From positions 608,001 through 672,000 of the forward strand of contig OZ244922.1 in NCBI GenBank assembly GCA_965221905.1: a stretch of DNA of 64,000 nt. Direction: 5' to 3'. The stretch comes from Chloroflexota bacterium. Lineage in GTDB: Bacteria; Chloroflexota; UBA11872; VXOZ01. The position numbers were made by a program, and so were the translations under genes. This document shows positions 29,062 to 30,367 of this stretch, piece by piece. A model generated the notes under the pieces. That model did not search any database. It was not told the DNA's origin and was given only the letters and a program-made list of their open reading frames with translations. Position 1 is the first letter of the stretch. Each line of letters starts with the position of its first letter.

Positions 29062-29199
29062 CGTGCAGATTCCGGAAGGTGAAGCGATCTCGCGTAGAGT
29101 GGGAAGACGCGGATGAGAGAACCTGGCGGTGAATTCTAAGGGTGCGGGATTAACTAGGCTCCGTTCATCCTTCGACAGGCTCAGAAACTGTCTTGGGTG

Positions 29200-30135
29200 T
29201 CAAGGTGCGGTGGTTGGTTTCCAGGGCGACTGTGTATTGAGCATGCGGTTGAGGATGGTGAGCAGCTTGCGCATGCAGGCGGTAAGGGCCACTTTCTTGG
29301 GTTTGCCTGCGGCGCACAGTCGGTCATAGAAGATTTTGATCACCGGATTGAAGCGGGTTGCGACCAAGGTAGCCATGTAGAGACTGGCGCGCACCGGGGC
29401 TCTGCCGCCCCAGACGCTGCGCTTGCCCCGGTAGGTGCCGCTATCCCGGTTGTGGGGAGCGACCCCCACCAGCGCGGCAATCTGCTTGCGATTGAGCCTG
29501 CCCAGTTCCGGGAGTTCTGCCAGCAAGCAGGTAGCCGTAACCGGGCCAATTCCCGGTACGCTGGACAGCAGGTTCTCACGGGCACGCCACAGCGGGCTGG
29601 TTTGGACGAGCGCCGCCAGTTCCTGGTCCAGGCTATCGAGTTGCCGCCGCAGCCAGGCAATGTGGGACTTGATCTGGGGACGAACCCGCTTGGTGGCCCG
29701 GGGCAGACGGTTGCACTCGGCAGTCAGCATCGCGACCACCTGCCGCCGCCGCGCTACCAAGCCCCGCAACTCCTGCGTCTGCGCGTCCGGCAGTGCGCGC
29801 GCCTCCGGTTGCACCGCTTCTCCAAAGCGCGCCAGCATGCCTGCATCTATCGCGTCCGTCTTCGCCAACCGTCCCGTGGCGCGCGCAAAGTCCCGCACCT
29901 GCCGCGGGTTCACGACCGTCACCTCCAGCCCCGCTGCCACTAACTCTCCTGCCACCGCGCTCTCCAGCCCACCCGTCGCTTCCAACACCACGCCCTGCGG
30001 CGCCAATGCAAGCAGACGCTCCCGCAGCTCCTCTATCCCTGCCGCATCGTTCCCAACCCACCACGACTGCGCTTCGTCAGCTACTCCCACGTCAAGCCGG
30101 TCTTGCGATACATCGATCCCCACGTACACTGCCAT
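29200..30135 (-). CDS. IS110 family DEDD recombinase/transposase
   Basis: GIDVS, LEATG, KTDAID (DEDD), VPGIG, RDSG (catalytic Ser), KLL. Confidence 0.96.
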
Positions 30136-30139
30136 TGCC

Positions 30140-30320
30140 TCCCTCCTGCTATACTATGGCTGGCGCTCCCATGCAGTCCCTGCCTTACGGATACGGACTT
30201 CGTGTCCCGGTAACTGTTCGGGCTCTGGGGGAGCTCGGCAGGTGTGGCGACCACTCTGAGCCACGGTCTGCCAGACCTAGGACGAACCGGTCTGCCACGC
30301 CTGCTCCCATTCTATCTCCC
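30140..30320 (-). ncRNA. Predicted IS110 bridge RNA (ends approximate)
   Basis: Contains GTTCGTCCT (+ strand 30279-30287), identical to left target + core, and GGCTCAG (+ strand 30256-30262), complementary to core + right target, within a stem-loop; donor-like ACAGTT and GTAAG segments lie downstream. Confidence 0.82.
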
Positions 30321-30367
30321 TTTTCCAAGATATAAGGACGAACGGAGTCTGGTTCTCCTGGAAGGCT

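Follow-up and report, generated by a model that had tools for sequence, protein, structure and literature searches.

The 64,000-nt window analyzed here, a stretch of a Chloroflexota genome (GCA_965221905.1, contig OZ244922.1, positions 608,001 to 672,000 of the forward strand), carries on its minus strand an insertion sequence (IS) that extends from 30334 to 29183 and measures 1,152 bp when one CT core is counted. This study describes the element, the 311-aa recombinase encoded by it (29200..30135), and the bridge RNA predicted for its non-coding end; all features of the element given below are read on the minus strand. An earlier note on this DNA, prepared from the letters alone, had placed the element between CT cores on its own strand, and these were found at 30336-30335 (left junction) and 29184-29183 (right junction), both supported by the sequence and by comparison of copies. 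Across the junctions, the sequence is GTTCGTC-CT-TATAT on the left and ACAGTTT-CT-GAGCC on the right. The element has a long left end (199 nt) and a short right end (15 nt past the stop codon plus the core), and it is devoid of terminal inverted repeats; the short core dinucleotide present at both junctions occurs as a single core in the empty site. The flanks without the element read CCGTTCGTCCT-GAGCCTGTCGA-AGGATGAACGG, and a genomic empty copy of these joined flanks folds into a DNA hairpin of 13 bp with an 11-nt loop and a free energy (dG) of -11.1 kcal/mol (z -6.09, with 0 of 200 shuffles equal), in agreement with the claim of the earlier note that excision restores a hairpin repeat.

The left half of the target is the 5' arm of this host hairpin repeat, CCGTTCGTC (30337..30345), in which the left target (LT) GTTCGTC is read from the sequence at 30343-30337; the same flank is found in four of the six genomic copies of the element, and GTTCGCC in the other two. 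The right half (29161..29182) comprises the right target (RT) GAGCC at 29182-29178, followed by the repeat loop and 3' arm, GAGCCTGTCGAAGGATGAACGG. On the side of the element, the left donor (LD) ACAGTTT forms the closing bases of the right end (29185..29191) and the right donor (RD) TATAT the opening bases of the left end (30330..30334), as assigned from the sequence and from relatives. Around this 14-nt donor, direct reading reveals a 5-bp sub-terminal inverted repeat, with CTTGG (30325..30329) on the left able to pair with CCAAG (29192..29196) on the right. The repeat co-varies in relatives, being AAC/GTT in the element designated L017 and GAC/GTC in L015; a 2-3-bp sub-terminal inverted repeat flanking the donor is described for IS110-family elements in the available excerpts of Durrant 2024 (PMC11208160).

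The recombinase gene, preceded by a directly readable Shine-Dalgarno-like sequence GGAGGGAGG (30138..30146) 5' of the ATG codon, encodes a DEDD RuvC-like domain and a Tnp domain, which match PF01548 (DEDD_Tnp_IS110, E 2.7e-21) and PF02371 (Transposase_20, E 1.7e-19), respectively. The protein scores 224.8 bits against NCBIfam NF033542 ('IS110 family RNA-guided transposase'; cut-off 140), and among solved structures phmmer aligns its residues 4-305 with ISCro4 (9t56, E 1.6e-44) and IS621 (8wt6, E 2.4e-42). In the phmmer alignment, D8, E52, D94, D97, and S232(-G233) correspond to D11, E60, D102, D105, and S241(-G242) of IS621, and mutation of any of these five IS621 residues abolishes recombination according to the available excerpts of Hiraizumi 2024 (PMC11208158). 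Judged by its sequence, the protein is unambiguously a member of the IS110 family, IS110 group (IS621-type). Its cluster at 90% identity contains 13 members in public assemblies. The 311-aa size given in the earlier note was correct, and the description of the enzyme as compact holds in a modest sense, the protein lying at the low end of the 300-460 aa range published for IS110 recombinases (Durrant 2024, PMC11208160, excerpts).

The non-coding string spelled out in the earlier note, GTGGCAGACC-G-GTTCGTCCT-A-GGTCTGGCAGACC-GT-GGCTCAG-AGT-GGTCGCCAC, was recovered letter for letter at 30298-30242 and forms the greater part of a predicted target-binding loop module (30238..30304), which folds, when its guides are kept unpaired, into an outer stem with a bulged A, an internal loop, and an inner hairpin at 30277-30265. 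Read 5' to 3', the module consists of the 5' strand of the outer stem (GCAGGCGUGGC-A-GACC), a linker G, the left target guide GUUCGUCCU (30279..30287), identical to LT plus core at 9/9 positions, a linker A, the inner hairpin GGUCU-GGC-AGACC, a linker GU, and the right target guide GGCUCAG (30256..30262), the reverse complement of CT-GAGCC at 7/7 positions. Both guides have the lengths and matches previously claimed for them. They are followed by the target-loop handshake dinucleotide AG (30254..30255), the A of which is able to pair with donor position 7 (T), a linker U, the 3' strand of the outer stem closing the module, and a 3-nt inter-module linker.

The predicted donor-binding loop module (30165..30234), likewise folded with unpaired guides, has the same plan of outer stem, internal loop, and inner hairpin (30208-30195). 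It opens with the 5' strand of the second outer stem, a linker GA, and the left donor guide ACAGUUACC (30209..30217), which matches ACAGTTT-CT at 7/9 positions, including 6/7 non-core positions, and continues with the inner hairpin GGGAC-ACGAA-GUCC and a linker GU. The 9-nt right donor guide AUCCGUAAG (30184..30192) is predicted to pair with CTTATAT, GUAAG and AU forming pairs if a CC bulge and one G·T wobble are allowed. The donor-loop handshake dinucleotide GC (30182..30183), whose G is able to pair with target position 7 (C), is followed by a linker A and the 3' strand of the second outer stem, which closes the module. The segments ACAGTT (30217-30212) and GTAAG (30188-30184), which the earlier note had located in a second loop and matched to the donor ACAGTTT-CT-TATAT, are both present in the left end. 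The assignment of the whole to the IS621-type bridge RNA architecture in that note agrees with the loop layout in the available excerpts of Hiraizumi 2024 (PMC11208158), and the targeting of repetitive extragenic palindromic (REP) sequences by IS621 through a CT core, which the note had also cited, is stated in the published IS621/IS110 work, as far as the excerpts go.

The guide-target matches exceed chance. In the left end of 199 nt, no other match goes beyond 5/9 for the 9-mer or 5/7 for the 7-mer, and by our own arithmetic, assuming uniform base composition, the chance of finding both an exact 9-mer and an exact 7-mer in about 190 positions each is ~1e-5. Against their own target the guides match at 12/12 non-core positions, whereas the unrelated guides of L015, L016, and L017 match it at only 3/12. 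When the left end is folded without constraint, the outer stems of both modules are present and part of the two target guides is paired together; holding the guides unpaired yields the full two-module architecture.

The host genome, a single contig of 3.52 Mb, contains six full-length copies of the element, all with CT at both junctions and with open reading frames (ORFs) intact. Five of them are identical over 1,150 nt, and the sixth differs by one C>T change in the loop of the donor-module hairpin. All six lie inside one hairpin repeat family, in the same orientation relative to the repeat, and the check proposed in the earlier note, namely whether other copies sit genome-wide at guide-matching sites, came out in favor of its reading in 6/6 cases, four at the perfect GTTCGTC-CT-GAGCC and two at the wobble variant GTTCGCC-CT-GAGCC. 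The host repeat is very abundant, with 250 genomic places matching GTTCGnnCTGAGCn, and has the form CCGTTCGnnCT-GAGCCTGTCGA-AGnnTGAACGG, the opposite stem arm compensating for the variable dinucleotide. A TG variant of the repeat is present in the window itself at about 62722-62735 (minus strand), and tandem arrays are found elsewhere in the host genome (G000), among them 15 repeats of a 26-nt unit at 2566062-2566426 and an array of 62-nt units at 2344329-2345978.

Occupancy, counted over genomic sites of the form GTTCGnnCTGAGCC, differs strongly between repeat variants. The 138 empty GAGCC places carry TG (52), CC (51), TC (10), CG (10), or other dinucleotides (15), and the element occupies 4/14 sites of the perfect TC variant, 2/53 of the CC variant, 0/52 of the TG variant, and 0/25 of the remaining variants (TC 4/14 vs all others 2/130, Fisher p = 7.8e-4). 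The CC variant alters target position 6, where the guide U would face a bottom-strand G and may form a U·G wobble; the TG variant alters position 7, which would create a C:C mismatch and deprive the donor-loop handshake G of its partner.

Whether the target is a REP in the strict sense, that is, a repeat mobilized by a REP-associated tyrosine transposase (RAYT), was also considered. The genome contains a single Y1_Tnp ORF that exceeds the Pfam cut-off (48.2 bits), and a search for three repeat motifs in the ~1.5 kb flanking it on each side found none. The designation REP was therefore rejected, and the target is named a REP-like hairpin repeat because the motifs are absent around the sole Y1_Tnp ORF. 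A seventh, different IS110-family match in the host genome (L065, G000:C1:352624-352932; PF01548, 37.9 bits) contains two in-frame TGA codons and is probably a decayed element.

The locus was compared with that of a sister genome (G002), in which the flanks are 88-90% identical and the orthologous locus is empty, reading ...CCGTTCGTC-CT-GAGCC..., a perfect target. Empty perfect sites GTTCGTC-CT-GAGCC number 10 in the host genome, in addition to this orthologous one. The sister genome holds one full copy of the element only (L071), at the locus orthologous to G000:C1:2344711-2345860; therefore, five of the six host copies are specific to the host lineage. At this shared locus the elements are identical at 1,148/1,150 positions, whereas identity in the 1.4-kb flanks falls to 91.4% and 93.9%, and a recent exchange between lineages, independent insertion in the same array, or fast-evolving flanks are possible explanations. 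Sequencing data were available from four runs in the form of contigs. In run X5, one DNA contig joins 29182 to 30335 and skips 1,152 bases; its shorter side comprises only 20 letters, and any empty repeat copy may be its source.

Relatives were drawn from a genome collection, in which 150 matched stretches yielded 43 loci encoding related proteins. The analysis covered 34 relatives and the window element, with L023, L039, L043, L046, L050-L053, and L055 left out as truncated or partial. Element ends were placed by motif in 33/35 elements (placement failed for L030 and L034), guides were placed in nine, and six distinct groups were cross-compared. Automatic guide placement erred for L017 in one run, and for L014 and L015 the constraint on the right donor guide fell in the wrong place, so that their donor-module folds are uninformative. 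At the 12 non-core positions, guides match their own targets at 12 (window), 12 (L014), 11 (L015), 8 (L016), 9 (L017), and 10 (L032) positions, compared with 2-5/12 in unrelated guide-target pairings. Guides change along with targets in seven orthologue groups, these being the six cross-compared groups and L067. The comparisons of the closest pairs, involving L014 and L067, are the most telling. L014, from another Chloroflexota genome and with 82% protein identity, has the target GTTCGCC-CT-GAGCC and the guide GTTCGCCCT / GUUCGCCCU, which carries the matching T>C change. L067, a paralogue in the genome of L014 with 74% nucleotide identity and the same donor and scaffold, has the guides GCUGGCCCU and GGGAGAG and lies at CCTAGCC-CT-CTCCC, a 10/12 match; a truncated copy, L068, likewise adjoins CT-CTCCC. 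Among acidobacterial copies, LT ends in GTCATC in 26/27, and RT is GAGCG, matching the guide CGCUCAG, in 20/27. One acidobacterial copy (L027:1348-1500) has a left end of about 153 nt compared with the usual length of about 205 nt; the missing stretch spans the 3' half of the target loop through the 5' half of the donor loop, which leaves a broken bridge RNA.

The donor side co-varies as well, GUAAG occurring with RD TATAT and GCAAG or ACAAG with RD TGTAT, and the first seven bases of the left donor guide match LD at 6-7/7 positions in own pairings. The target-loop handshake base can pair with donor position 7 in 7/7 elements (A:T in three and C:G in four), and the donor-loop handshake base can pair with target position 7 in 6/7, L017 being the exception; the latter result reflects conservation and not co-variation because target position 7 is C throughout. 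With the guides kept unpaired, the outer stem, loop, and inner hairpin of the target module are formed in 7/7 orthologues, and their stems differ in sequence, for example GACC/GGUC, AACC/GGUU, and GAUC/GAUC. This stem covariation is seen in separate folds of the individual elements.

When the two ends of the element are joined, the -35 hexamer TTGACA of the right end (29198..29203), which overlaps the TGA stop codon, and the -10 hexamer TATCTT of the left end (30327..30332) form a predicted sigma-70 promoter, TTGACA-17-TATCTT, with 10/12 matches; in the junction promoter scan, it is complete only in the circle. A comparable junction promoter (8-10/12 matches, same register) is found in 8/9 elements examined, with L015 lacking one. 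In integrated copies, the -35 position matches TTGACA at 1-2/6 bases only (6/6 copies), and a scan of the integrated locus returned 0 promoter-like sites. A promoter restricted to the circle, with a weak integrated state, is consistent with published reports that expression is strong from the circle and weak after integration; in IS621, integrated copies normally have a weak promoter. If transcription starts about 7 nt past TATCTT, there is no room for a 5' stem-loop ahead of the target loop. In a single study, two metatranscriptome runs (X18 and X19, labeled sponge metagenome) contain contigs that cover parts of the recombinase gene (29199-29537 and 29700-30095) at 99-100% identity, with DNA carry-over possible in those libraries; those relatives that bear names are Chloroflexota metagenome-assembled genomes. 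The RNA-library contigs listed reach the left end only at its outermost base, 30334, which says nothing either way about the bridge RNA.

On the opposite strand, the full length of the Rfam family sX15 (RF02234; model positions 1-159) can be aligned with the reverse complement of the left end (30158-30313, plus strand), at 43.9 bits (E 1.7e-5) and thus under the gathering score of 55. According to its original paper, sX15 is a small RNA of Xanthomonadaceae that lies antisense to XCVd0106, shows complementarity to another small RNA, asX7, and has ten homologues in Stenotrophomonas maltophilia. It probably represents the antisense counterpart of an IS110 bridge-RNA locus; no link of sX15 or asX7 to bridge RNAs was found in the literature searched.

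We conclude that the window very probably contains a bridge-RNA-guided insertion sequence of the IS621 type that is active or was recently so. The anatomy of the element, its protein family, the six insertion sites, the empty orthologous site, and the guide-target co-variation among relatives are observed, and every sequence-level hallmark of the IS110 group (IS621-type) that could be tested is present. By homology with IS621, we infer that the left end is transcribed, that the RNA binds the protein, and that the complex is catalytic; the terms programmable and RNA expressed should be understood in the same presumptive sense. According to the proposed mechanism, the element would excise as a circle in which the right end is joined to the left end across the CT core, and the circle junction would create the sigma-70 promoter driving transcription of the left end as a bridge RNA of about 150-160 nt. 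In this RNA, the first internal loop would pair with the target and the second likewise with the junction of the element itself, ACAGTTT-CT-TATAT, while a tetramer of the 311-aa DEDD/serine recombinase would exchange strands at the CT core. The element would thereby be inserted into a single subfamily of the host hairpin repeat, at the top of its 5' arm, and the U at guide position 6 would also admit the commoner GTTCGCC variant through a U·G wobble.

Several observations weigh against this conclusion. In the fold of the left end proposed as a check in the earlier note, the outer stems were confirmed and the stability was not, as the unconstrained fold does not go significantly beyond shuffles (z -1.74, 10/200 shuffles equal). 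RNAalifold, applied to a plain MAFFT alignment of 12 left ends, gave 16 pairs only; that alignment was not structure-aware, some of its rows were shifted by one base, and it was not used, later alignments being alike and dropped. No Rfam 15 family was detected on the sense strand of the left end at E values up to 10, except for a chance-level hit to D12-methyl (E 1.4). The donor guides are imperfect, the left one matching at 7/9 positions and the right one requiring a 2-nt bulge and a wobble; the left-target match of L016 and L017 is only 6/9, and the donor-loop handshake of L017 is unpaired. Production of the bridge RNA is presumed by homology. The insertion sites are few (six), two of them lie within tandem repeat arrays, and all six targets are hairpins, so that with these sites a contribution of DNA structure is inseparable from base pairing.

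This last point leads to the possibility that protein recognition of the repeat hairpin mainly sets the insertion site, with the RNA matches being auxiliary or a by-product. It would explain why all six insertions fall at the same stem point of one hairpin family, and the available excerpts of the ISPpu10 preprint (10.64898/2026.03.19.712850) report that the target stem-loop adds specificity beyond base pairing. Subfamilies sharing the same fold are, however, used very unequally (perfect 4/14 vs TG 0/52), L067, with a near-identical scaffold and other guides, sits in CT-CTCCC matching those guides, and guides track targets in four other phyla, and we consider this explanation very unlikely. 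It is also most unlikely that the copies are fossils of an immobile element whose guide-target match records past activity. Integrated copies do lack a recognizable promoter, but a weak integrated promoter is normal for IS621, as far as the published excerpts describe it; moreover, a single difference (1/1,150 nt) sets one copy apart from the other five, which are identical, the ORFs are open, the five catalytic residues are kept, and the sister genome has only one full copy and an empty site at the window locus in flanking DNA that has diverged by 10-12%.

A third explanation, which we regard as exceedingly improbable, holds that the guide-like strings are a captured fragment of the host repeat and that the left end is a 5' leader regulating transposase expression. 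The string GTTCGTCCT is indeed common, with 68 genomic occurrences, and in Xanthomonas such leaders are known to be covered by pairs of sense and antisense small RNAs (sX15, asX7). In the repeat, however, GAGCC directly follows GTTCGTCCT on the same strand, whereas the left end has its reverse complement 16 nt downstream across a hairpin, which is the IS621 layout, and elements from Burkholderiales, Planctomycetota, Tepidisphaeraceae, and Acidobacteriaceae carry other strings at these two places that match their own unrelated flanks. Bridge-RNA-guided insertion thus remains our preferred interpretation.

A more tentative proposal, to which we give slightly less than even weight, is that the Chloroflexota clade comprising the window element, L014, and L067 represents a naturally minimal bridge system, with a 311-aa recombinase, an RNA of ~140-160 nt without a 5' stem-loop, a 3-nt linker, and naturally rewritten guides. 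Guides may have been rewritten on a near-unchanged scaffold, with a single base differing between the window element and L014 and with the right guide replaced entirely in L067. In addition, a U·G wobble of the U at guide position 6 may widen the pool from 14 perfect to 67 sites and allow the element to track repeat subfamilies.

The element leaves both neighboring genes intact, namely a creatininase-family gene at 28348-29061 (plus strand; PF02633, E 4.1e-39) and a staphylococcal-nuclease-like gene at 30618-31169 (minus strand; PF00565, E 2.7e-24). Directly beyond the left junction, positions 30361-30402 form a perfect 42-nt palindrome with 19-bp arms, a member of a second repeat family that occurs in the sister genome in at least 12 places, on both strands, as 28-38-nt matches with 97-100% identity. 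This palindrome is not found beside the other five copies of the element, and in run X1 positions 30360-30404 have a summed contig depth of 17,140, compared with 546 for the element, a difference of about 30-fold.

The element is a clean further example of the bridge-RNA recombinases already described and not another kind of system; it adds no new principle, and such elements are expected by specialists. Its value lies in the six copies and many empty sites of graded match within a complete genome, which together provide a natural readout of mismatch tolerance, as well as in the sister genome with its empty orthologous site and in the close relatives whose guides are rewritten in step with their targets. 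The small protein and short RNA make it a candidate additional recombinase, and if it proves active in heterologous cells, it would offer a compact enzyme that differs from IS621 in specificity. The results also aid annotation in an uncultured Chloroflexota lineage, where the hairpin repeat family is very abundant.

Bridge RNAs are predicted in 85.7% of the IS110-group elements of ISfinder, and the targeting of REP sequences has long been known (Durrant 2024, PMC11208160, excerpts). Among solved structures, ISCro4 (PDB 9t56) is the best match, query residues 4-305 aligning with residues 10-319 of the chain, with the same domain order and catalytic motifs; it differs in the length of the deposited chain (341 aa), the comparison being one of the proteins alone. 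ISPpu9 and ISPpu10 of Pseudomonas putida (PMC12288879; 10.64898/2026.03.19.712850), IS110 elements with REP or stem-loop-bearing intergenic sequences as insertion sites, are similarly multicopy, their identical copies each occupying one conserved palindromic repeat between genes, and share the choice of target by a bridge RNA with a possible contribution of the hairpin. They differ in host phylum and repeat, and the element described here is known from its sequence alone.

The closest parallels are with IS621 of Escherichia coli, the founding member of the bridge-RNA recombinases, insofar as it is described in the excerpts of both papers (PMC11208160, PMC11208158). Both elements have a two-domain DEDD plus serine recombinase with five catalytic residues, a CT core, a long left and a short right end, a promoter rebuilt across the circle junction, and insertion into palindromic host repeats. 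Both have an RNA with a target loop and a donor loop and GU linkers after both inner hairpins; in each loop, the 9-nt left guide equals the top strand of the left half-site plus the core and pairs with the bottom strand, the right guides are complementary to the top strand, and the 9-nt right donor guide pairs discontiguously with seven donor bases. Handshake dinucleotides follow both right guides and are expected to pair with position 7 of the opposite DNA (Hiraizumi 2024, PMC11208158). In contrast to IS621, whose protein is distant (phmmer E 2.4e-42) and has 326 residues compared with 311 aa here, the element in the window offers no space for a 5' stem-loop, for which IS621 uses nucleotides 1-33 and which the acidobacterial, planctomycete, and Tepidisphaeraceae relatives also carry upstream of the target loop. 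The spacing between modules is 3 nt here and 11 nt in IS621, and the element has its own target, a Chloroflexota host repeat unrelated to the E. coli REP sequences quoted in Durrant 2024 (PMC11208160).

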